DNA of 32,000 nucleotides from Acaryochloris marina S15 (GCF_018336915.1 NZ_CP064923.1:2670001-2702000), one strand, 5' to 3'; shown: positions 6,405 through 32,000, counted from the first letter of the stretch. Numbers and translations: made by a program. Notes: generated by a model from the sequence alone, not told the origin.

Positions 6405-8093
6405 ATGGGCAAGGCTCAATCTTCCCTCGTGAATAGAGGAATAGAAACCCTGGGTGACTGGAATCCGCAACTGATGCGGGAGATCCAAGGTCGCTTAAAA
6501 TTACGCAGTGTGTTGTTGACGGTATTTTTGTCTTTGGTCGCTCAAGGACTGTTTCTATTCTGGCAATATCGGACTTTAGATTATCGGTGGGGGAACTGTG
6601 AAACCGCTGAATATCGGAAAATAGGCGTGGACTGTTTCCAAGTCAGCCCAGAACAATTTCTGTTAGTGAATTGGCAAGGATGGTGGTTACGAGTCTTTTC
6701 CTGGAGCTGCATTTTTCTGATGTTTGGCCTGATTGTGGGTGGCACTTTTTTACTGATCAGTGATCTATCAAGGGAAGATCGCCACGGAACCCTGACATTT
6801 ATTAGCCTCAGCCCCCAAACAGCCCGCACCATCTTGCTGGGAAAAATGCTCGGTGCTCCTTTCTTGATTTACTTGGCTGTCCTCTTCGCACTGCCACTTC
6901 ACTATATGACAGGGTTAGCTGCTGAAATTCCGGCCATCAGAATATTAGGCTTTGATGTTCTTCTATTGGCTAGCTGTTGTTTCTACTACAGCCTGGCTTT
7001 ATTAATGGGGCTTGCCAGCAACTGGCTGAACGGCTTTCAAGCTTGGTTATGGAGTGCAGGTATTGTTTTACTCCTGCTGTCTCTTAAACAAACCTCTCTA
7101 ACATACAGTTCTATTGACTGGCTATATACTCTATCGCCTTCAGTGATTTTCCCCCTTATTTATCGGGATATAATGCCTACTCTGACGGGTGTGAACCTCC
7201 CTTTATATTCCCATCGGTTAGCGGACTGGCAATGGTTTTTAGTGCCCATCGGCAGAAGTGTCGTGGGGGTAGGGTTATTTGTATTGGCCCATTTCGGTCT
7301 ATGGACTTGGTGGTTATGGCGACCTCTACAACGCCGCTTTAACAACCCCACGATTTCCCTCCTCAGCAAAAAGCAAAGCTATTGGGCAACTGCCTGCTTC
7401 TTTGTCTGCTTGTTGGGATTTTCATTCAATTCTGGAAACAACTCTCCATCGAATATGATGACAGCCGTTATCCTCACTCATTTTTTATGGTTTCTGTTGA
7501 TGGTTGTATTGTTACTCCCTCACCATCAGAATCTAGAAGATTGGGCTCGGTTTCGAAGAAATTATCCATCCACGAAGGGCAAGACACAACGCTTCCATGA
7601 TTTAGTTTGGGCCGATAATAGTCCAACTTGGATTGCAATCGCCATCAATCTAGGCATTGCAGGTCTTCCGATCCTACTTTGGATGTTATTTTTACCCGAA
7701 AATGACTCTAGAGTCGGCATTGCTGCACTCTTGTTCAATTCCACCTTGATATTGATTTTCACTCTATTCAATCAGGTGATGTTGTTGCGGCCCATCTCCA
7801 ATCGCAACTTGTGGGTAATGGCAACGTTGTTGGGACCCACTATTCTTCCAACTTTTGTACTCGCTATGTTGGGAATTAATCCTGGACAAGCGTGGGAGAG
7901 TTTGATTTTGTTCACCCCTTTTGCCATAGCTGGAATCGAAAAAATTCCAGCCTTCAGTGCACTGCCGATATTTGGCATCCACGTGGGTTTGGTCGCAGGT
8001 TTGAGCTGGTTACAGAACCGAAAGCTGACCCAACTGGGGGAGTCAACGTCCCAGCAACTTCTTCGAGGTGACGTCTATGTTGAGCAAGGCTAA
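6405..8093 (+). CDS. polytopic ABC-2-type permease-like membrane protein
   Basis: 562-aa ORF whose ATG directly abuts the ATPase TAA (TAAATG at 6402-6407). It has many hydrophobic segments. The N-terminal WNPQLMREIQGRLK and EDRHGTLTFISLSPQ motifs resemble those I remember from cyanobacterial ABC-2 permeases. Confidence 0.8.
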   Translation: MGKAQSSLVNRGIETLGDWNPQLMREIQGRLKLRSVLLTVFLSLVAQGLFLFWQYRTLDYRWGNCETAEYRKIGVDCFQVSPEQFLLVNWQGWWLRVFSWSCIFLMFGLIVGGTFLLISDLSREDRHGTLTFISLSPQTARTILLGKMLGAPFLIYLAVLFALPLHYMTGLAAEIPAIRILGFDVLLLASCCFYYSLALLMGLASNWLNGFQAWLWSAGIVLLLLSLKQTSLTYSSIDWLYTLSPSVIFPLIYRDIMPTLTGVNLPLYSHRLADWQWFLVPIGRSVVGVGLFVLAHFGLWTWWLWRPLQRRFNNPTISLLSKKQSYWATACFFVCLLGFSFNSGNNSPSNMMTAVILTHFLWFLLMVVLLLPHHQNLEDWARFRRNYPSTKGKTQRFHDLVWADNSPTWIAIAINLGIAGLPILLWMLFLPENDSRVGIAALLFNSTLILIFTLFNQVMLLRPISNRNLWVMATLLGPTILPTFVLAMLGINPGQAWESLILFTPFAIAGIEKIPAFSALPIFGIHVGLVAGLSWLQNRKLTQLGESTSQQLLRGDVYVEQG

Positions 8094-10797: not shown

Positions 10798-11106
10798 ATG
10801 AGTACACTCAACTTGAATGCCCCAATGGCTATAAATAAAGCCCAAATACGACGACTTCATGCTCGAATTGCACCCATATGGTTCCTGCCCCTTATCCTTA
10901 CCTCTCTAAGTGGCTCTCTTTATCAAGTCGCCAATCTGAATAAAGCCAATAGTGATTTCTTTTGGCTACTCGATATCCATAAAGGAAACTTTGGCCCCCT
11001 CAAGCTAGAAGTCATTTATCCTTTTATCAATACCTTTGCCCTGCTGATGCTGGCAGTCACCGGCATCACTATGTGGCTGCAAACTCCTCGAAGAAAACGT
11101 TCATAA
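10798..11106 (+). CDS. small two-TM membrane protein, PepSY-associated-TM-helix-like
   Basis: 102 aa with two hydrophobic helices (IAPIWFLPLILTSLSGSLY and FALLMLAVTGITMWL) and an RRLHARI lead-in similar to PepSY_TM proteins. Its stop directly abuts the next gene (TAAATG at 11104-11109). Confidence 0.55.
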   Translation: MSTLNLNAPMAINKAQIRRLHARIAPIWFLPLILTSLSGSLYQVANLNKANSDFFWLLDIHKGNFGPLKLEVIYPFINTFALLMLAVTGITMWLQTPRRKRS

Positions 11107-11811
11107 ATGCGACCCACCGTCATCCTGCCGGGGTATCTGGCTTCGGCAACAGACTATCTAGATCTCCAACAGCAACTCAAGGTTTTAGGCACAGACACGA
11201 CTATTGTTCCCCTACAGCGTAAAGACTGGTTTCCCACCCTGGGTGGACGTCCCATCTCACCTATTTTGGAACAGCTAGATCGTACTGTTCATGAAGTTCT
11301 TGGACGCACCCAAGCCCCTCAAGTCAATATCGTCGGCCATTCAGCAGGGGGGTGGATCTCTCGGATCTATATGGGGGCAGAACCTTATTGTGATCAAGTT
11401 TGGCAAGCTCAGCCTAAAGTGCATACCCTGATTAGTCTGGGAACCCCACACACCAGCCAAGAATCATGGACCCAACGCAACCTCAATTTCGTGAATGATA
11501 ACTACCCTGGTGCTTTTCATCCTGAAGTGCAATACGTATGCGTTGCGGGTAAAGCCCTTTATGGCCAGCGTAGTTGGCGATTGGGGCAGTGGTTTACCTA
11601 TAGCAGTTATAAGGTCACTTGTGGTGAAGGTGAATGCTGGGGCGATGGGGTCACTCCAATCATGTCTGCCCATCTATCGGGTGCCCTCAATCTAACCATC
11701 GATCAGGTGTGGCATTCGCCGCATCCAACCCAAGCTGTTCCTAGAAATACAGACTATCAATGGTACGGATCACCAGAGGTGATTAAAGGTTGGAGTTCTT
11801 ATTTGGCATGA
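11107..11811 (+). CDS. alpha/beta-hydrolase (esterase/lipase-type) protein
   Basis: 234 aa with a nucleophile-elbow GHSAGG (VNIVGHSAGGWISRIY) and later conserved G.D..V and His positions. Translationally coupled to the upstream small membrane protein. Confidence 0.8.
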   Translation: MRPTVILPGYLASATDYLDLQQQLKVLGTDTTIVPLQRKDWFPTLGGRPISPILEQLDRTVHEVLGRTQAPQVNIVGHSAGGWISRIYMGAEPYCDQVWQAQPKVHTLISLGTPHTSQESWTQRNLNFVNDNYPGAFHPEVQYVCVAGKALYGQRSWRLGQWFTYSSYKVTCGEGECWGDGVTPIMSAHLSGALNLTIDQVWHSPHPTQAVPRNTDYQWYGSPEVIKGWSSYLA

Positions 11812-12021
11812 CCTGTCAATAGAGTCCTACCTACGCAATGGCATCCCTTATTGCTCTAAGTTCTGGGGACAATCTCCTTGAAGCCATGAACAGAAAATCT
11901 CGCCCAAATCTAATCGGTAGCTGGCCGATTAACCCCATTGAGGCAAGAGCTAATCGGCCACTGATGATTTTCTATAGAAGTCTCTATTTTCTATCTAGGG
12001 ACTCAAAAATTGAGGATAGAC

Positions 12022-12240
12022 TTAACGGGTAAAACTTAATCTCTTAGATCTGCGTAAATAGAACTTTGACAAAGTCAAAGGCCAATGAATAATTTGATGT
12101 TTTGAACGCTTTTTTTGAGTCAGATATTGATCTGATTTTGTAGAAGGGACTTCTATCCAACAATGGGGACAGAACCAGCTAACTCTATCAAAGTGGATTT
12201 GTCGTAGCAATGTATTCGAGCAGCATGGACAGTCAGTCAT
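12022..12240 (-). CDS. small zinc-ribbon protein (CPCC...CPHC)
   Basis: 72-aa ORF. The N-terminal MTDCPCCSNTLLRQIHFDRVSWFCPHCWIEVP carries two CxxC pairs. The C-terminal tail is basic and AT-rich and may be over-extended. Divergent from the protelomerase-like gene. Confidence 0.5.
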   Translation of the reverse strand: MTDCPCCSNTLLRQIHFDRVSWFCPHCWIEVPSTKSDQYLTQKKRSKHQIIHWPLTLSKFYLRRSKRLSFTR

Positions 12241-12452
12241 AAGCTTTGTGGAAATTATTGCTGGAAAGAATGATGCTGTTATGTGCTTACTTTAGGTTGC
12301 AATCATGAGGAAGTTGTGAGGGTAGCCTTAAACCTTCACGTCTGGGTATTGAGGAAAGCACTACTATCACTCGCTTTGCAAAAGTTTTATACCTAATGGG
12401 AAATCGACCAATAGGTGTGTAATAATCATCGCAATCTGGTACTTGCAATACT

Positions 12453-14579
12453 ATGCGCCGCTGGCTTAAAAAATTATATGATCACCCATTTTTGCCTGCG
12501 GTAGCTTCTTTAGGAAATACTCCTCAAGATCGCCAGATCGCAGAACAATGGTCGACTTGGATGAAGCAACAGTGGCATGACCATGGCCTAAAAGAGCTGA
12601 AACAGCAGCGCAATTTGATGACGGAGGTGCGGCAGGCACTCAAGCAGCAACTCGGTGAAGAGCATGTGGTCGTAGAGACCATGAATTTCTCACGGGATGA
12701 GTGGATTCAAATCAATTTATCGATTAATGATACGGTGGCAGCTCGCAACGAACAGCAGGGGCTGATTGAACAGCCCGATGCCATTGTCGATCGCGCCAAG
12801 ATGCTGCTAGATAGTCAGGATTGGTCAGAAGTCGCCGCTGGGCTAGCCGTAGTAACCGGACGTCGCTGTACGGAGCTATTACAAACCGCTGAATTTATCT
12901 TTTGCTCCCCCTATAGCGTTTGGTTTACTGGAGCACTGAAACGTCGAAAAGAGTCCATGGAGCTACGTTTTGAAATTCCTACCCTTGCTTCTGCTAAACA
13001 TGCGATCGCAGCCCTAGAGCTTCTCCGGCAACGAGTCAATACCGTGGGATTGGATCTAGAAACCATTAATCGCAAGTACAGTCCCCCCGTAGCCAAAGCC
13101 TGCGATCGGTATTTTGCCGAACTGATTCCCCAACGAGCCGGACGGGGCAATCTGTATACCCACCTATTTCGAACGATCTATGCTCGGATCTCTACCCATT
13201 GGTACGCTCCCCCCACTGTGGCGGATGTTGAATATATGGCTGCGATTCAAGGCCATTTTTTGATCCAGAAGGAGCAGGATACGACGCTCCGCCGATCCCT
13301 TGCCTCCACTCGCCACTACAATGACTACAAAATTGGTGACGGCCAGGGCAATATAGATGGTCGTCAAGGTATCCGACTACGAGATCCAGGGGTGCAGGTC
13401 CTGCAAGTGTTCCAAAGTGCCGCCCCTCAAATTGAACCAGAACCCCTCACTGAATGGGAAGAACAACCAATGATCCGACCTGTTAAACGTCAACACCAGC
13501 GCCCTAAGCGAGAAATTTCCACCCTAAGACTTTACCAAGATGAACGGGATCGGTGGCTCCAGGTGCTCGACCAGTTTGAGCCTCGTGGCACTCAACAAGA
13601 AAAGATGTCTGTGCTGCTGGAATGGCTAGAACAATCCCTAAAAGACGGGACTCCTATGAGTGAGACCCCAGATGATTTAGACCAGCTAGCCCACCTGTTT
13701 ATTGAGCCACTACAGCCCCTCAGAGACCCAGAGGCTATCCGAAACCTGTGCCAGCAAGAAATTTCTGACCTGGAGCAGGACTACTATCCAGAGGATTATT
13801 TGCCCCTGTATAAACGAGCGATCGCAGAAGCAATACGCTCGGGGCAGCTCCCCCTAATTGATGGAAAGACAGCAGAACGAACCAGCTATACCAAAGAGGG
13901 GGTCAACTATGAGCAGCGCACCCATTATGCTCTGTTATTTCTAGACGATCTGGATCATGAATTGGAAGCTCCCGCATCTGATACGCCTCAACAAGTTACA
14001 CCTATTAAATCGGACATTACACCTAAAATTGATTCAGCACCCAGTCAAGCCGACTCACCATCCACAACCGATCAAAAATTAGATACGTTAGCCACGGTAC
14101 TGACACAGCTAGTACAAGTGATGCAGGGAGATTCGGTAGCTCCTCAACCCACTCCAGAACTAGACACTGCGCAGAATAAAATGGCCCACAAGAATGGCCA
14201 TGCCTCATCTCAGCAGGCTAAATCTACAAAATCTTCAACAACAACGCCAGATCCAGAACCTTCTTCTCCCCAAAAGAGCGGCAGACGTTCAGGTAATACG
14301 TCTGCCGCTGCAGAAGCCAAAATCATCCAGGCCATTAACGCGATCATGGACTACAACAATGTTTCCACTCGAACCTTTGATGAAAAATGGATGATTAGCT
14401 CATCTATCCTCAAACGATTGACCAAGTCTTACCAAGGCGTGATTCAGCGGGTCCTAGATGCCCGCAAAGATGAAATTAAACTCCACCATCAGGCCCATGG
14501 TTTGAAAGGCCGTCATAATACTCGCCACGGTCGAGCTGGGATCACGATTGACCAAATAATTCAACTTGAGTTGGATTAA
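12453..14579 (+). CDS. protelomerase (telomere resolvase) family protein with a long low-complexity tail
   Basis: The core (aa approx 125-300) carries GLAVVTGRRCTELL, FTGALKRRKES, LYTHLFRTIYARIS and IQGH...TRHYNDY. Order and spacing match the motifs I remember from N15 TelN and phiKO2 TelK (..SGRRMIEI.., FSGQAKKRSED, SRAIYARIA, LGH...LHYKQF). See findings. Confidence 0.7.
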   Translation: MRRWLKKLYDHPFLPAVASLGNTPQDRQIAEQWSTWMKQQWHDHGLKELKQQRNLMTEVRQALKQQLGEEHVVVETMNFSRDEWIQINLSINDTVAARNEQQGLIEQPDAIVDRAKMLLDSQDWSEVAAGLAVVTGRRCTELLQTAEFIFCSPYSVWFTGALKRRKESMELRFEIPTLASAKHAIAALELLRQRVNTVGLDLETINRKYSPPVAKACDRYFAELIPQRAGRGNLYTHLFRTIYARISTHWYAPPTVADVEYMAAIQGHFLIQKEQDTTLRRSLASTRHYNDYKIGDGQGNIDGRQGIRLRDPGVQVLQVFQSAAPQIEPEPLTEWEEQPMIRPVKRQHQRPKREISTLRLYQDERDRWLQVLDQFEPRGTQQEKMSVLLEWLEQSLKDGTPMSETPDDLDQLAHLFIEPLQPLRDPEAIRNLCQQEISDLEQDYYPEDYLPLYKRAIAEAIRSGQLPLIDGKTAERTSYTKEGVNYEQRTHYALLFLDDLDHELEAPASDTPQQVTPIKSDITPKIDSAPSQADSPSTTDQKLDTLATVLTQLVQVMQGDSVAPQPTPELDTAQNKMAHKNGHASSQQAKSTKSSTTTPDPEPSSPQKSGRRSGNTSAAAEAKIIQAINAIMDYNNVSTRTFDEKWMISSSILKRLTKSYQGVIQRVLDARKDEIKLHHQAHGLKGRHNTRHGRAGITIDQIIQLELD
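13002..13009. repeat. HIP1 copy (GCGATCGC)
   Basis: Exact octamer read in the sequence, inside the protelomerase-like gene. Confidence 0.9.
13818..13825. repeat. HIP1 copy (GCGATCGC)
   Basis: Exact octamer read in the sequence, inside the protelomerase-like gene. Confidence 0.9.
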
Positions 14580-14655
14580 ATTACCAGTACTCGGATACAG
14601 AATGGGTTGTTCGTAAACCCAAAGATATTCGCTAAAGTACGGCTAGTAAACTTTT

Positions 14656-15321
14656 TTATAGAAAACCTTGCTGCTCGCCAAATTTCTTGACCACTGGCAT
14701 ACATCGTCTTTGAAAAAAACTACTCAGTGTAGAGATAGGCAGATCAAACTCCTGAGAAATTTGATCCCATTGCATATCAGAGAAGATGCGCTTCAACAAC
14801 AACACTTGGCAATTGGCATCAGGTCGATTGAGAATATGTAGCTCACGCAATTCTCCAGATGGATCTGTTTCCACCCAATGACGGGTCACTTCCAAAATAG
14901 GAGGGATATCTGGAGGAGCAGCAAGATTTGCCATAGTGTCACCAGCCTTATTAGTTCCAGTTGATGAGACAGGAGAACAAAATCTCGTATGATGCTGAGC
15001 CTTGTTGATCTGAAAGTCTCGTAAACGCCATTTAAGATACTGATTTAACCAGGTAATGATGCTGCTGCGTTCTGGGTCAAACTGCTTTCCGGTACCTGCT
15101 TCACATATATTCTGACAAAAATAAAGCCAAGTCAGTTGTAAGGCATCTTCATAATATGGAGTATGTTCATGCCAAAGCTTTTTCGATTTTTGGATAATCC
15201 TAATTATTTTTGATAAACATTGTTTTCTTTTATAGTGACCTGGAGGATATTGACGAGCTTCCAATAACAATGGCAGAACTTCTACGTCAATTGGATTTGA
15301 ATCTCGATCAGTGATATTCAT
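14656..15321 (-). CDS. sigma-70 family (ECF-like) RNA polymerase sigma factor-like protein
   Basis: 221 aa. The region-2-like segment is YYEDALQLTWLYFCQNI...FDPERSSIITWLNQYLKWRLRDF. The region-4 HTH-like segment is MQWDQISQEFDLPISTLSSFFQRRCMPVVKKF. AT-rich codon usage. Confidence 0.65.
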   Translation of the reverse strand: MNITDRDSNPIDVEVLPLLLEARQYPPGHYKRKQCLSKIIRIIQKSKKLWHEHTPYYEDALQLTWLYFCQNICEAGTGKQFDPERSSIITWLNQYLKWRLRDFQINKAQHHTRFCSPVSSTGTNKAGDTMANLAAPPDIPPILEVTRHWVETDPSGELRELHILNRPDANCQVLLLKRIFSDMQWDQISQEFDLPISTLSSFFQRRCMPVVKKFGEQQGFL

Positions 15322-15727
15322 ATGTCTTGCGTCGTCTAGAGAATAGCAAAGTCGAAAGCTATTAGTTCTTTACAAATTAATCACCCATAAAAATCCATCT
15401 TAAAAAAATTGCTGAAACACTTTAAGCACCTGAGGAGTCCTAAGCCCTCAAAACAACAAAACCATTTCCAGACCAAATCATGAAGTTACGACTAGTTCAC
15501 ATAACAACTGATAACTTGATGCTAGTAACGGCAAGCAACAAGTCCTTTATAATCGCAAAAAGCTATATGAGCAGAAGCTTCTAGAGTTAAAGGTAGCTCT
15601 CTAACCTATCAATTGCCATTAACTTTATTAGTGTTGTAATGGCCAGAAACCACCGCATCTAGATCTATGATTAACTTAGCAAGTTACATCTACCGTACCT
15701 ATCTTTTAGTGCATTCAACCTCGGCCT

Positions 15728-18355
15728 ATGTATGACTCTGGCCCATTTCTCGATCATGAAAATGGGAGAAATCATTTGACCTATGGCCCAGTCCCTAGAC
15801 GAAGGACAAAGCGTCTGCTGGAAGTTCTACTTGCCTATTCAAATGATGAATTCGAAATTAGTGAGCAGCTACGATCAAAAATCAGAGTCAATTGGCAGAC
15901 AGACTATCAACTGGTGGTGGAGACGACTGTTCATGCCTTAGTTTCACTGACCCAATCGGATGCTTATAGTGGTCAGCTTGATAATAATCACGTTAAAACT
16001 TCACTCAAATTATTAGAAAAATTCTTAAATATCCTGGTAGATAATCGTTCTCAGCCCCGAGGATCGCACAAATGGAATTTTACAATTAAGCTCTGGTTTG
16101 ATCGGAACCATACTGCAGATAATTTAGAAAAGTTTTACGACGAATGGGAGCGTCTCAGGCCTTCTAAATCCAAACAAGTCACTGACTATGGTTATAACAC
16201 AAGCCAACCGATTTCTTCTTTACCCGATGTGTCTTATAGTGTTGCCGAAAACAATAGAACACTAAACGCTTCCCTGCAACATAGATCTGATACCCATAGC
16301 AATCAGCAATGCTCTTTCTCGACGGAAGCATATTTGAGACGGTATTCTGAGCGTCATGGCATTTTGAAAGTATTGGGGATGAGAGGGCCAGCTCAGCTGG
16401 ATTCACTCTATACCACAATGCACTTACTGAATGAAGATTCTGTCCTTAGCTCTGAGTCCATCAATTGGCTCGAAGAAAACTACCGTCAGCGCAAGGTTTT
16501 CTTGCTAGAAGAAAAGCGAGCTAAACGACAATCTGGCATAGAGATAGCTAATGCATATCAATATTTGATGGTATTAGGTGGTCCTGGCACAGGCAAATCT
16601 ACCTTCTTACGAAAAATAGGACTAGAGACCCTCCATAATAGATATCAAGAGGGCTATGAATATAACTGCATTCCCATCTTTATTGAGCTAAAAAAATTTA
16701 GCTTTACAGAAGTTGATCTGGAATCAGCAATTATTGAAGAATTCAAAATTTGTGGTTTTTCTAAACCGCAACATTTTTTAGAGAAAGCTCTGGTGCAAGG
16801 GAATTTGCTGCTATTGCTGGATGGGCTGGATGAAGTGCCGATGGAGCAAATGAGCGAGGCGATTTCAAAAATCCAAGACTTTGCCAATCGATTTCACCAA
16901 AATCGGTTCATCATTACCTGTAGACCTGCAGCATACAGATACAACCTCCGCAATTTCACAGATGTTGTGATTGCCGAGTTTGATGATCATCAGATCAGGC
17001 AGTTTATAGAGAAATGGTTTTATAACCAACCCCAACAGGGTCGAAAATGTTGGGAGCAACTCAATACTGATAGTAATACGGCAGCAAAAGAGCTGACTCG
17101 AACGCCATTACTTCTCACCATGCTTTGCCTTGTTTTCCAAAGGGAAGGACAGTTCCCGAAGCACAGAGCCACTTTGTATGAAAAGTCTCTATGGGTGCTT
17201 TTAGAAGAATGGGATGCCGAAAAGGATGTTCCGAGAGAAGGTATTTATAAAGGACTGGCAACAAAACGCAAAGAGATTATTCTGTCAAAAATTGCTTTTG
17301 ATGCTTTTCAGAGAGATGAATTATTTATCACAAGACGAACGCTAACCCAGCAAATCGAGGAACTATTGAGTGAAATGCTTCCTGATATTGCTTTAATTGA
17401 TGGCAAGAAAGTCTTGAAATCAATTGAATTACAACATGGTCTATTGGTTGAACGGGTCGAATCTGTATACTCATTTTCGCACTTAACCATACAAGAATTT
17501 CTAGCTGCTCAGTATATTTTTGCTCAGTCCAAAAATGATGATTTTCTTTTACAAGACTTGATTGAACAATATTTAACGGATGACCGTTGGCAAGAAATTT
17601 TCTTGTTGTTATCAGGTATGAGTAAGGCAGATAAAATTTTACAAATTATGGACAGACATGCTCGAAGCTATCTAGACAGTTCTCCACCCCTCCAGAAGTT
17701 ACTTCGATGTGCAGATCTGAGTACTCAAGATACAGAAGGTGATTTTAAGTCAGCAGCCAAAAGGGCTACTGCAATTGGACTTTTTTTCCCTGGGGTACAT
17801 CCTCTCTATCCCATTACCCGCTTCTCAAACCCTGATGATGCTATCCTCAAAAAAAGACTTTATTATACCTATGACTTAGCCCGTGAGCTTACAGGTGCTC
17901 TTACGAATAGACGGCTACTAACCCTAGCATTAGATCGCAATAGAACGACCGACACGGTGATGTATTGCGGCATAGAAAGCACCCATAAAAATGCATTTTT
18001 GCGTGCAATTAAGATTTCAATTATTAGTGCTAAAAAATTCAAGGAAGCGAAAATATTCAATAATGTAGACTTCAATGAGCTGGTTAGAGCCCTTGAGTTG
18101 TTAAAAAGTGATATCCCAAGTGAATTAGCACCTTTCGAGGAGAATATGGAATTCGCTAAGCGTGCTCAGCAGATTTGGATTGATGCGTTTAAAGTTAATT
18201 TTGAATTGGTTAGCTTTTCTTTAAAAGACTTGAATTTATTGAATAATTACCTCAAGTCCATGATTGTTATCATTCACTGCCAGAGATCTTCTTTATCATA
18301 CTCGCAATCAATATGGGACAGCATTGAATCCAGAATATTAGTTGCCAATAAATAA
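15728..18355 (+). CDS. NACHT-domain STAND NTPase with unassigned N- and C-terminal regions
   Basis: 875 aa. Walker A is LMVLGGPGTGKSTF (nt 16577-16603) and Walker B is LLLLLDGLDEV (nt 16805-16837). These are followed by ITCRP and a winged-helix/helical region typical of NACHT. I recognise no WD40, TPR or LRR repeats and no known effector domain. Confidence 0.9.
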   Translation: MYDSGPFLDHENGRNHLTYGPVPRRRTKRLLEVLLAYSNDEFEISEQLRSKIRVNWQTDYQLVVETTVHALVSLTQSDAYSGQLDNNHVKTSLKLLEKFLNILVDNRSQPRGSHKWNFTIKLWFDRNHTADNLEKFYDEWERLRPSKSKQVTDYGYNTSQPISSLPDVSYSVAENNRTLNASLQHRSDTHSNQQCSFSTEAYLRRYSERHGILKVLGMRGPAQLDSLYTTMHLLNEDSVLSSESINWLEENYRQRKVFLLEEKRAKRQSGIEIANAYQYLMVLGGPGTGKSTFLRKIGLETLHNRYQEGYEYNCIPIFIELKKFSFTEVDLESAIIEEFKICGFSKPQHFLEKALVQGNLLLLLDGLDEVPMEQMSEAISKIQDFANRFHQNRFIITCRPAAYRYNLRNFTDVVIAEFDDHQIRQFIEKWFYNQPQQGRKCWEQLNTDSNTAAKELTRTPLLLTMLCLVFQREGQFPKHRATLYEKSLWVLLEEWDAEKDVPREGIYKGLATKRKEIILSKIAFDAFQRDELFITRRTLTQQIEELLSEMLPDIALIDGKKVLKSIELQHGLLVERVESVYSFSHLTIQEFLAAQYIFAQSKNDDFLLQDLIEQYLTDDRWQEIFLLLSGMSKADKILQIMDRHARSYLDSSPPLQKLLRCADLSTQDTEGDFKSAAKRATAIGLFFPGVHPLYPITRFSNPDDAILKKRLYYTYDLARELTGALTNRRLLTLALDRNRTTDTVMYCGIESTHKNAFLRAIKISIISAKKFKEAKIFNNVDFNELVRALELLKSDIPSELAPFEENMEFAKRAQQIWIDAFKVNFELVSFSLKDLNLLNNYLKSMIVIIHCQRSSLSYSQSIWDSIESRILVANK

Positions 18356-30704: not shown

Positions 30705-32000
30705 ATGCAGCCGCTGAATTCATCAAAGTTTAGCCTGATTGATGGTCTGAAACAATGTTTAGCTCCCCTTCGTTCTCCCCTGAGTCGTCAGATTGGCATT
30801 ATGGGGTTAGGAAGCTGCCTCATTGCCGAGGCTGTCATTTTAGTACCGGCCTATTTCAGGATTAGAGAAGCCAAACTAGGCCAACTGGAAGCCCAAAGTT
30901 TAACCGCAATCACCCCTTTGGCCAGTTTCGCTAACACGAAGTCCTCTCCAGACCAGCTAGTTGATACGGCTGAGACCCTCATGCAGGGGTCAAACGTCAT
31001 GGGTGGCACCCTCTACCAAAATGGGAGTAAACGGGTCACGTTTGGGACTTCCCCTACATTGCCAGATTTTTCTAATCCTGACATAACCAGGGTTTGGAAC
31101 AACTCGTCATCGACTTACGATATTACTTGGCCACAGCAAGAGAATACCGGTTATCGATTATCTTTAAGGCTGGACGGGACAGAGATTCAGGCAGCAGCCC
31201 TAACGAGCTCTCTACAGTTAGCCGGATTCATTCTGCTCATTTGGATTACGTTTACGATTATTACCCTACAGGCTGTGAGCCGTACGGTTATCAGTCCCCT
31301 CAACCAGCTGTTAGATGAGTTACGGAAAGTTGAAGTTGCCATGTCTGGCGATCCTAGCCAGGTGGAATTGAGTTCTCTGGAATGCGATCGCAACCATGAA
31401 TTAGCTGAGGTCATCGATACCTTCAATGTTGTTCTCCAACGAGCCGCTCTCAATATTGGCCAACTCAAAGACAGCATGATTTCCCTGTTGGAGACTCGGC
31501 AGCAGGAGTTAGAGGAGATGGTTTCTGAGCTCCAATCTGCTAAACATGAAGCAGAGACAGCCAATCAGGCCAAAAGTCAATTTCTGGCCAATATGAGCCA
31601 TGAAATTCGCACCCCCATGAATGCAGTCATTGGCATGACTGGTTTACTCTTAAATACGCCTTTAGAGACACAACAACAGGATTTTGTCGAAACCATCCGC
31701 AGTAGTGGGGATGCCTTACTGACCCTGATCAACGATATTTTAGATTTCTCCAAAATTGAGGCAGGGAAGCTGGATCTTGAACAGCAACCCTTTGAAATCA
31801 GGACCTGTATTGAAGAAGCCTTGCTGATCGTTGCATCGAAAGCCTCTGGTAAAAATCTGGAGCTGGCTTATCTGATTAATCCACCCACGCCAACCGCCAT
31901 TCTGGGGGATATTACTCGCCTACGTCAGGTTTTAGTCAACCTGCTCAACAATGCGATTAAGTTTACAGGCGAAGGGGAAGTCGTCGTTTATGTGTCTTCA
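30705..32000 (+). CDS. membrane sensor histidine kinase, N-terminal 432 codons; continues past the right window edge
   Basis: My own translation from ATG 30705 is stop-free to the window end, and it is absent from the ORF track because it has no stop. Two hydrophobic helices ([21 protein letters not shown] and [17 protein letters not shown]), a HAMP-like linker, a coiled coil, the H-box [18 protein letters not shown] and the N-box [13 protein letters not shown]. Confidence 0.9.
31384..31391. repeat. HIP1 copy (GCGATCGC)
   Basis: Exact octamer read in the sequence. Confidence 0.9.

Follow-up and report, generated by a model that had tools for sequence, protein, structure and literature searches.

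An ECF-like sigma factor gene beside an EAD4-NACHT NTPase gene in Acaryochloris marina: a possible meeting of parts from two described cyanobacterial conflict systems

In the 32,000-nucleotide stretch of Acaryochloris marina S15 analyzed here (NZ_CP064923.1:2670001-2702000, referred to as the window), a gene for a putative sigma factor is divergently paired with a gene for a NACHT-type STAND NTPase (signal transduction ATPase with numerous domains), and the closest described relatives of both are known from computational work. For the sigma factor, these are found in the study of Kaur et al. 2021 (eLife, PMC8195603) on EACC2-caspase proteins with variable C-termini such as CHASE2, in which an extracytoplasmic function (ECF) sigma factor and DUF1822 are described beside EACC2-caspase-CHASE2 in cyanobacteria. 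This description is purely computational (Kaur, Iyer, Burroughs, Aravind 2021); in the literature, no other link between DUF1822 and a sigma factor was found besides it, nor any experimental study on the sigma family or on the DUF1822/CHAT/CHASE2/DUF928 operon. For the NTPase, the closest described systems are STAND proteins of 'multicellular-type' bacterial conflict systems tagged with effector-associated domains (EADs), small non-enzymatic adaptor domains on a core NTPase whose second copy is usually found on an effector or signalling protein, either adjacent or distant (Kaur et al. 2020, PMC7159879). EAD4 has been grouped with those EADs that mainly recruit other effectors (PMC7159879), and EAD-type N-termini make up the 'adaptor' class of bacterial NACHT (bNACHT) proteins, which are related to the nucleotide-binding leucine-rich repeat (NLR) proteins (Kibby et al., bioRxiv 10.1101/2022.07.19.500537). 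Measured against these systems, the pair is explained best, with a probability of about one half in our judgement, as parts of two already described cyanobacterial conflict systems lying side by side in an Acaryochloris-specific variable island, without being a dedicated pair and without direct coupling. An earlier, sequence-only reading of the locus had proposed an undescribed two-gene module in which the sigma-like protein serves as output of a NACHT sensor; as the work of Kaur et al. 2021 (PMC8195603) already covers the sigma factor with DUF1822 beside EACC2-caspase-CHASE2, the attribute 'undescribed' has to be withdrawn.

The layout given in that reading is exact to the base: open reading frames (ORFs) of 221 and 875 amino acids (aa) diverge across a 406-bp, AT-rich spacer with a G+C fraction (GC) of 0.372. 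The features of the pair are listed below in coordinates of the window; AlphaFold2 is abbreviated AF2 and its confidence measure, the predicted local distance difference test, pLDDT. Loci and proteins used for comparison carry L and P numbers.

14656-15321, minus strand: orphan ECF-like sigma gene, 221 aa (ORF, homologues, AF2, Foldseek, tree)
14980-15294, minus strand: sigma2-like helical domain, aa 10-114 (AF2 helices and hhalign)
14668-14901, minus strand: sigma4-like helix-turn-helix (HTH) domain, aa 141-218 (AF2 pLDDT 89-97 and hhalign)
14776-14784, minus strand: codons F180-S181-D182 in place of the family PPE motif (family alignment)
15322-15727, no strand: divergent spacer, 406 bp, with conserved blocks (three-way alignment of orphan loci)
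15510-15539, minus strand: conserved central spacer block GTTGCTTnnCGTTACTAnCAnnAAGTTATC (alignment of window, L021 and L007)
15582-15627, no strand: imperfect dyad TAGAGTTAAAGG-N22-CCATTAACTTTA (inverted-repeat search and alignment)
15728-18355, plus strand: EAD4-NACHT-NCH2 STAND NTPase, 875 aa (Pfam)
15785-16153, plus strand: EAD4 adaptor domain, aa 20-142 (PF19959, E 2.1e-38; AF2)
16184-16318, plus strand: predicted disordered linker from EAD4 to the NACHT module, aa 153-197 (pLDDT <50)
16562-17026, plus strand: NACHT P-loop module, aa 279-433 (PF05729; Walker A/B)
18083-18343, plus strand: NCH2, NACHT C-terminal helical domain 2, aa 786-872 (PF22727, E 8e-7)

Recognizable sigma-70 regions 2 and 4 had been claimed for the small protein, and this claim stands for the predicted fold and fails for curated profiles. 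No Pfam match was obtained at E<=0.1, TIGR02937 (sigma70-ECF) matched aa 35-201 with 19.6 bits at a cutoff of 42.9 and reached E<=0.01 in just 4 of 23 sigma-family members, and the curated profiles for sigma-70 region 2, region 4 and ECF factors all stay below their thresholds; a hidden Markov model (HMM) of the family found nothing significant among PDB sequences. The AF2 model (23 homologues, pLDDT 81) predicts two helical domains, aa 10-114 and 141-218, separated by a disordered linker, the first of them with helices at 10-23, 30-46, 57-71 and 88-114, which corresponds to a sigma2 plus sigma4 architecture without sigma1.1 or sigma3. When this model was compared with the PDB by Foldseek, ECF sigma factors dominated, with both halves covered by the top matches, among them sigmaE (1or7_A, prob 0.99, E 0.011), AlgU, SigL, SigK, SigH and SigW; the low significance of E-values and TM-scores is as expected, because the two domains float relative to each other. 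An hhalign comparison of the family profile with E. coli sigmaE, which is supportive only, was colinear (E 0.004) and paired YEDALQxTW with region 2.2, SSIITWLNQYL with regions 2.3-2.4 and WDQISQEFDLPISTLSS with the HTH of region 4.2. Additionally, 150 homologues were retrieved in a protein search, all of them cyanobacterial wherever a source is named and several named 'sigma-70 family RNA polymerase sigma factor' by NCBI. As a working identity, the small protein is thus taken as a very divergent ECF-like sigma factor, judging from its sequence and model. It shares sigma2 and sigma4 with the members of classical ECF sigma/anti-sigma pairs (sigmaE-RseA, AlgU-MucA, SigK-RskA), which are also its best structural matches; unlike these, it remains below curated thresholds, has no recognizable co-encoded anti-sigma domain, and is divergent from its conserved neighbour instead of co-transcribed with it.

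The usual genomic context of this family is a different one. In total, 403 sigma-family loci were confirmed in genome contigs, and the best 80 of these 403 were fetched and classified, a sample that is therefore biased toward closer relatives. DUF1822 lies directly downstream of the sigma gene in 49 of the 80 loci, followed by CHAT/CHASE2 and usually then by DUF928, and this operon order is backed by precomputed Pfam annotation (sigma, DUF1822, CHAT-Guanylate_cyc-CHASE2, DUF928). In four further loci, TPR-CHAT or two-partner-secretion (TPS)-type genes separate sigma from a DUF1822 gene within 10 kb, 21 have neither DUF1822 nor NACHT, and five contigs are too short for a context call. The only NACHT-adjacent locus among the 80 is L021, the orthologue of A. 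marina MBIC11017 with 92% identity. Genes in the fetched loci were called simply as longest ORFs, and neighbours were searched with profiles seeded from annotated reference neighbours, a single reference each, so that divergent DUF1822 or STAND proteins may be missed in the 21 unclassified loci; Pfam spot checks and a census of upstream neighbours were used to mitigate this. The spot checks of loci lacking the canonical context revealed TPR-CHAT, TamB, PKS, GlgB and AAA_35. The Pfam census of the upstream neighbour in 75 loci, which is the slot occupied by NACHT here, gave a heterogeneous picture (DUF2330 9, thioredoxin 8, response regulators 5, RTX 4, TPR-CHAT 3, TnpB 3) and no recurrent STAND family. 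Hence, the statement that similar sigma-like proteins lie next to large STAND genes in other cyanobacteria is not borne out, and a general sigma/STAND module is refuted: conserved adjacency is not found elsewhere, and the sigma factor groups with partner genes of its own, both of which the sequence-only reading had itself named as evidence against it.

The survey brought up several other contexts of the sigma family. An AAA_35 gene is the neighbour of the sigma gene in L034, while L029 encodes, two genes upstream of sigma, a WD40 protein of 1226 aa in which aa 1 to ~600 hold no domain among the 25 of 67 Pfam families listed. In Nostocales, a DUF2330 gene on the same strand precedes sigma in 9 of 75 loci (L047, L054, L058, L061, L063, L071, L075, L078, L091), and a TPR-CHAT protein of ~900 aa often comes after it; in L047, DUF2330 is itself preceded by an NQR2/RnfD-like membrane protein (Pfam), and an ORF of similar size occupies that place in several other loci. 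No mention of this DUF2330-sigma-TPR-CHAT context was found in the literature. A canonical sigma-DUF1822-CHAT arrangement was also present on a 9-kb contig (L080, JBLNEP010000174.1) of a metagenome-assembled genome labelled Actinomycetota. This label is likely due to a binning contaminant, or possibly to transfer; every other taxon-named locus is cyanobacterial, apart from a few labelled merely 'uncultured bacterium'.

Compared with the system of Kaur et al. 2021, the window sigma falls inside the operon-heading clade, with 58-64% identity to the sigma factors heading canonical operons in Acaryochloris and the same two-domain ECF-like fold. It differs from them in its EAD4-NACHT neighbour, in the sequence FSD for PPE, and in the lack of DUF1822, CHAT/CHASE2 and DUF928 beside it. 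A profile search found none of these within the 32-kb window, where the sole match of the neighbour profiles is a partial kinase-like ORF at 30705-32000. The window sigma belongs to a clade of five such orphan lineages, the others being L021 (92% sigma identity), L007 (69%), P0003/L097 (66%) and P0007/L100 (65%). In a distance tree, this clade is monophyletic in 25 of 25 bootstraps and nested among the canonical operon-heading sigma factors of Acaryochloridaceae; the orphan sigma was therefore born by duplication of an operon sigma within this family. A. marina MBIC11017 holds both copies, the canonical one in L013 and the orphan in L021, and a canonical sigma operon is also present in an Acaryochloris assembly (L101) with a run accession from the same series as the runs matching the window. 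The duplicate is under purifying selection (ratio of nonsynonymous to synonymous substitution rates, dN/dS, of 0.046 between the window and MBIC11017), and the idea of a decaying remnant was rejected on this ground. Within an 85-member alignment, the PPE of sigma4 is conserved to 100% (P), 99% (P) and 96% (E) in the 80 non-orphan sequences, whereas in the five orphans the first position is F, the second S, A or L and the third D, Q or H, giving F180-S181-D182 in the window. The motif is kept even in those Nostocales members that lack a DUF1822 neighbour and is replaced only in the NACHT-adjacent orphans. It is a candidate contact site for the regulator of the sigma family.

With regard to the large protein, the earlier identification as a NACHT NTPase with intact Walker motifs was confirmed by a Pfam match to PF05729 (E 1.4e-12, aa 279-433), by Walker A GGPGTGKS at aa 284-291 including K290 and by Walker B LLLLDGLDE from aa 361; equally, no WD40, TPR or LRR repeats were detected by Pfam, as had been stated. 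The same reading overlooked, however, an EAD4 domain at the N-terminus (PF19959, E 2.1e-38, aa 20-142) and NCH2 at the C-terminus (PF22727, E 8e-7, aa 786-872), where an HD2-like helical region is found as well; NCH2 and this helical region are presumed to be the sensor end. EAD4 is regarded as the output or adaptor end of such NTPases (PMC7159879; Kibby et al., bioRxiv 10.1101/2022.07.19.500537), and the argument that a NACHT protein devoid of an effector must act through the neighbouring sigma factor therefore loses its premise. In its tripartite build of EAD4, NACHT module with Walker A/B and NCH2, the window protein resembles the EAD-tagged STAND proteins of the bNACHT adaptor class; it differs in having no second EAD4 gene or effector adjacent to it and no repeat-type sensor. 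The NACHT gene is likewise under purifying selection (dN/dS 0.099, window versus MBIC11017). Its match to the antiphage model EruA is partial, with 52 bits at a cutoff of 1000, and PADLOC gave no model match beyond a P-loop fragment of the protein.

AF2 modelling of NACHT aa 1-280 predicted EAD4 as a compact alpha+beta domain (pLDDT ~90), followed by a disordered linker (153-197, pLDDT <50) and by low-confidence helices (aa 198-278) running into the NACHT module. The Foldseek neighbours of the EAD4 model are winged-helix proteins throughout (PadR/LmrR, MarR, RTP, ORC/Cdc6) and weak, with a best E of 0.03, none <=0.001 and TM-scores <=0.48. An exhaustive HMMER search with EAD4 returned 289 representative proteins; nearly all of those listed, 150 in number, carry the domain at their N-terminus. 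The closest 80 are combined with NB-ARC (21), NACHT (17) or AAA_16 (11), others with TPR, HEAT or WD40, and ten short EAD4 proteins, inspected one by one, are NTPase fragments (including AAA_35), repeat proteins and EAD4-only proteins. One candidate for a standalone partner, P0241 from a word-indexed EAD4 search, was rejected, as it turned out to be the sigma/NACHT locus once more, located on a short contig and with its NACHT gene truncated.

Among ~2000 homologues of the NACHT protein, a NACHT-NCH2 core of ~700 aa is widespread in cyanobacteria, with variable N-termini and with NCH2 in almost all NACHT relatives among the matches listed. One of these relatives, P0150 (1220 aa), carries N-terminal N6-DNA-methylase and Eco57I-type domains (PF02384, PF07669). 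EAD4 is found on the Acaryochloris clade (P0121-P0127) and on P0222 (L093, 39% identity), the sole EAD4-NACHT-NCH2 protein found outside Acaryochloris, whose plasmid-like contig also encodes NikA-like and relaxase proteins. Beyond the orthologous clade, a sigma neighbour is present at none of P0222, P0136 and P0130; the neighbours of the P0136 and P0130 NACHT genes are unrelated, and the 57%-identical EAD4-NACHT protein P0127 has an unrelated 163-aa protein as neighbour. In CP071717.1, whose sigma protein is 100% identical to that of the window, an extra A in an A6 homopolymer of the NACHT gene (L004 ~7258-7331; window ~18020-18050) splits off NCH2, which may be genuine, as a frameshift or phase variation, or may reflect a homopolymer assembly error.

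The window is 98.9% identical to CP071717.1 over 20.7 kb and 86% identical to A. marina MBIC11017 up to position 14660, and synteny with MBIC11017 breaks off at a distance of four bases from the sigma ORF's end. Each of the five orphan lineages keeps the divergent EAD4-NACHT neighbour of sigma, and four of them also keep GGT beyond NACHT, the fifth contig being too short to tell. Of the proposed two-gene module there remains, accordingly, a pair kept throughout one Acaryochloris clade, not a widespread unit. The flank beyond the sigma gene consists of a ResT/TelK-type resolvase in the window, a Tn5-type transposase in MBIC11017 (L021), a CHASE2 kinase (CHASE2-HK), DUF928 and TPS in L007, and DUF3370 with an iSTAND-MoxR-vWA system further on in L097. 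The site is variable in the manner of a hotspot, and conflict genes often lie together in islands; the adjacency is explicable without direct coupling.

Under this explanation, each of the two proteins would follow the logic of its own system, independently of the other. In the canonical operon (after Kaur et al. 2021), a signal sensed by CHASE2 would activate the CHAT protease, and this activation would release the sigma factor for a transcriptional response. The orphan sigma, duplicated in Acaryochloridaceae, would have lost its operon partners and changed the PPE of sigma4, and it is probably an extra or rewired transcriptional arm. As judged from its family, the NACHT protein would sense a trigger through its C-terminal helical region, whereupon NTP-dependent oligomerization would cluster the N-terminal EAD4 adaptors and these would recruit other EAD4-tagged proteins encoded elsewhere.

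Several observations weigh against two mere neighbours. The pair has remained unsplit in five lineages, in which sigma identity goes down to 65% and synonymous divergence (dS) is saturated, with the 3' flank rearranged at least four times. GC amounts to 0.398 in sigma, 0.372 in the spacer and 0.395 in NACHT compared with 0.45-0.50 in every flanking gene, the same low-GC block is present in L021 and L007, and the canonical sigma operon of A. marina has a normal GC of 0.46-0.49; the low GC common to sigma, spacer and NACHT therefore suggests a shared history as a unit. At the same time, GGT is also kept by NACHT, so that plain vertical synteny explains the adjacency as well and these data do not discriminate. 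The loss of PPE in the orphan sigma is consistent with a changed regulatory partner. Moreover, no enzymatic effector was found among the closest EAD4 proteins examined, and a profile search of ORFs >=70 aa in the window and 100 loci yielded no second EAD4 gene, only NACHT proteins matching.

A lineage-specific coupling of the two genes in Acaryochloris is possible, and it would more likely be transcriptional than by sequestration. In the transcriptional version, which is unlikely overall and survives best among the alternatives, the orphan sigma would autoregulate and would also drive the divergent NACHT gene from the common 406-bp control region; more of the NACHT sensor would then be made once sigma is activated, possibly through the canonical CHAT/CHASE2 system or through induction of sigma itself. 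Autoregulation is usual for ECF sigma factors, and where a divergent pair with a regulator in it is conserved, the other gene is often the regulator's target. Besides the arrangement being kept in five of five orphan lineages, the spacer itself speaks for such a role, as its alignment in three orphan loci (window, L021, L007) has 76% mean column identity with discrete blocks conserved despite the saturated synonymous divergence. The central block GTTGCTTnnCGTTACTAnCAnnAAGTTATC lies ~190-220 nt upstream of the sigma ATG and is conserved in all three. A related element of ~25 nt is common to both sigma paralogue types and reads TCTTGTARTGTKCAARWTAAT in the canonical and CGTTACTAGCATCAAGTTATC in the orphan form; TCTTGTARTGTKCAARWTAAT is located 160-260 nt upstream of canonical Acaryochloris sigma genes (L013, L014, L015, L016, L017, L008), and the orphan sigma may have kept part of its parent's control region. 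However, this element faces sigma, not NACHT, and it is not family-wide, since a position weight matrix (PWM) seeded with the Acaryochloris element retrieved essentially the seed sequences and two others. Neither k-mer nor PWM searches yielded a family-wide promoter motif upstream of sigma genes, with lineage-specific signals only; k-mer enrichment returned just HIP1 (GCGATCGC) and Nostocales-specific strings at -26 to -46 from estimated start codons. Also, no ECF-type -35/-10 pair was recognized in the spacer, sigma-70-type promoter matches and a terminator scan showed no excess over shuffles there, and an Rfam search of the region gave no match.

A broader version, to which a somewhat smaller probability still is assigned, has the EAD4-NACHT sensor capturing the duplicated ECF-like sigma as a dedicated output, be it through binding, through EAD4 acting on the spacer or through sigma-driven expression of the sensor. 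Under such a capture, the loss of PPE would mark release from the ancestral DUF1822/CHAT regulator.

Direct sequestration, as originally envisaged, appears improbable. Here, the N-terminal region of the NACHT protein would hold the sigma factor and release or capture it upon NTP-dependent oligomerization, sigma being the output. This would fit the possibility, allowed for by Kibby et al. (bioRxiv 10.1101/2022.07.19.500537), of a transcriptional response set off by adaptor-type N-termini of NACHT proteins, and it would draw on the stable co-inheritance within a common compositional island, on the missing output partner of NACHT and on an orphan sigma that has lost PPE and has neither a recognizable anti-sigma nor a DUF1822 neighbour. 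The N-terminal region, however, is EAD4, which occurs on hundreds of STAND NTPases without a sigma neighbour, and what follows it is predicted to be disordered (aa 153-197) or to consist of low-confidence helices (198-278). Homotypic contact would call for EAD4 on the sigma protein, where neither Pfam nor the profile detects it. Both a sigma protein with EAD4 and a NACHT protein with a DUF1822-like or anti-sigma-like segment were rejected as candidates, as Pfam and profiles gave no such matches. Finally, adjacency of the two genes is absent beyond one genus.

The idea behind the earlier model, a STAND NTPase coupled to a transcriptional output, is embodied by MalT, AfsR/SARP-type regulators and CIITA, which differ from the window protein in that DNA-binding or co-activator function lies within the STAND protein itself, the winged-helix resemblance of EAD4 being weak; none of these regulators is known to work through a separate sigma factor. 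CIITA is a transcription-regulating NLR protein (Kibby et al., bioRxiv 10.1101/2022.07.19.500537). An equally doubtful proposal on this model, in which the NACHT protein would be an AfsR/SARP- or MalT-like regulator whose winged-helix EAD4 acts on the spacer to control the divergent sigma gene in a cascade from sensor to sigma to regulon, can point to the consistently winged-helix neighbours of a confident EAD4 model, to the classical layout of a regulator divergent from its target and to the imperfect conserved dyad TAGAGTTAAAGG-N22-CCATTAACTTTA ~100-145 nt upstream of the NACHT ATG (repeat I4 in the window, equivalent I1 in L021), but all these Foldseek matches are weak, winged helices are also common as protein-protein modules, a sigma neighbour is lacking at other EAD4-STAND genes, and EAD4 was defined through pairs of core and partner proteins that both carry it, which points to use as a protein-protein adaptor (PMC7159879). 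As for the dyad, its blocks TAAAGTTA and AACTCT do not vary among the three aligned loci, and short imperfect repeats of this kind can arise by chance. Other explanations take up the remaining probability.

Some neighbouring genes are worth recording. The gene that directly follows the 3' end of sigma (12453-14579, plus strand) is located on a 5.7-Mb chromosome of Acaryochloris, and its 708-aa product contains a ResT/TelK telomere-resolvase catalytic domain (Pfam E 7.5e-28; NCBIfam TelA E 1e-11). It is absent at the equivalent site of MBIC11017 (where the Tn5-type transposase is found instead), L007 and L097, while 18 plasmids encode homologues with 26-46% identity, of which 17 are from cyanobacteria (Leptolyngbya, Nostoc, Chondrocystis, Gloeothece, Gloeocapsa and others); those listed are annotated as protelomerase or telomere resolvase where named. 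A palindromic telomere-resolution site was sought beside the resolvase gene and not found, there being no palindrome of >=14 nt nearby. Between the resolvase gene and the upstream genes, a 72-aa ORF (12022-12240, minus strand) with two CxxC pairs has a zinc-ribbon-like appearance and no family match in Pfam. In L097, genes for iSTAND, MoxR-like AAA, vWA and FGE-sulfatase proteins occupy 11062-15624, about 5 kb further out than the orphan sigma. Pfam matches to AAA_5 and VWA_CoxE in this cluster are faint; its resemblance to a conflict system would fit a defence or variable island at this site.

Taken at its most probable, the locus adds little to what is known, namely one more EAD4-NACHT protein and an orphan ECF-like sigma paralogue, both already catalogued computationally; the orphan sigma clade with its fixed EAD4-NACHT pairing is a lineage-specific variant of these families. 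The PPE motif and its orphan-specific loss, on the other hand, offer a concrete handle on the regulator-binding surface of the sigma factor. If the pair were coupled after all, bacterial NLR-like sensors could be wired to a transcriptional instead of a killing output; it would then be the first case of an NLR-type protein in bacteria that is wired to a sigma factor, and such coupling would matter for the understanding of these immune-type systems.

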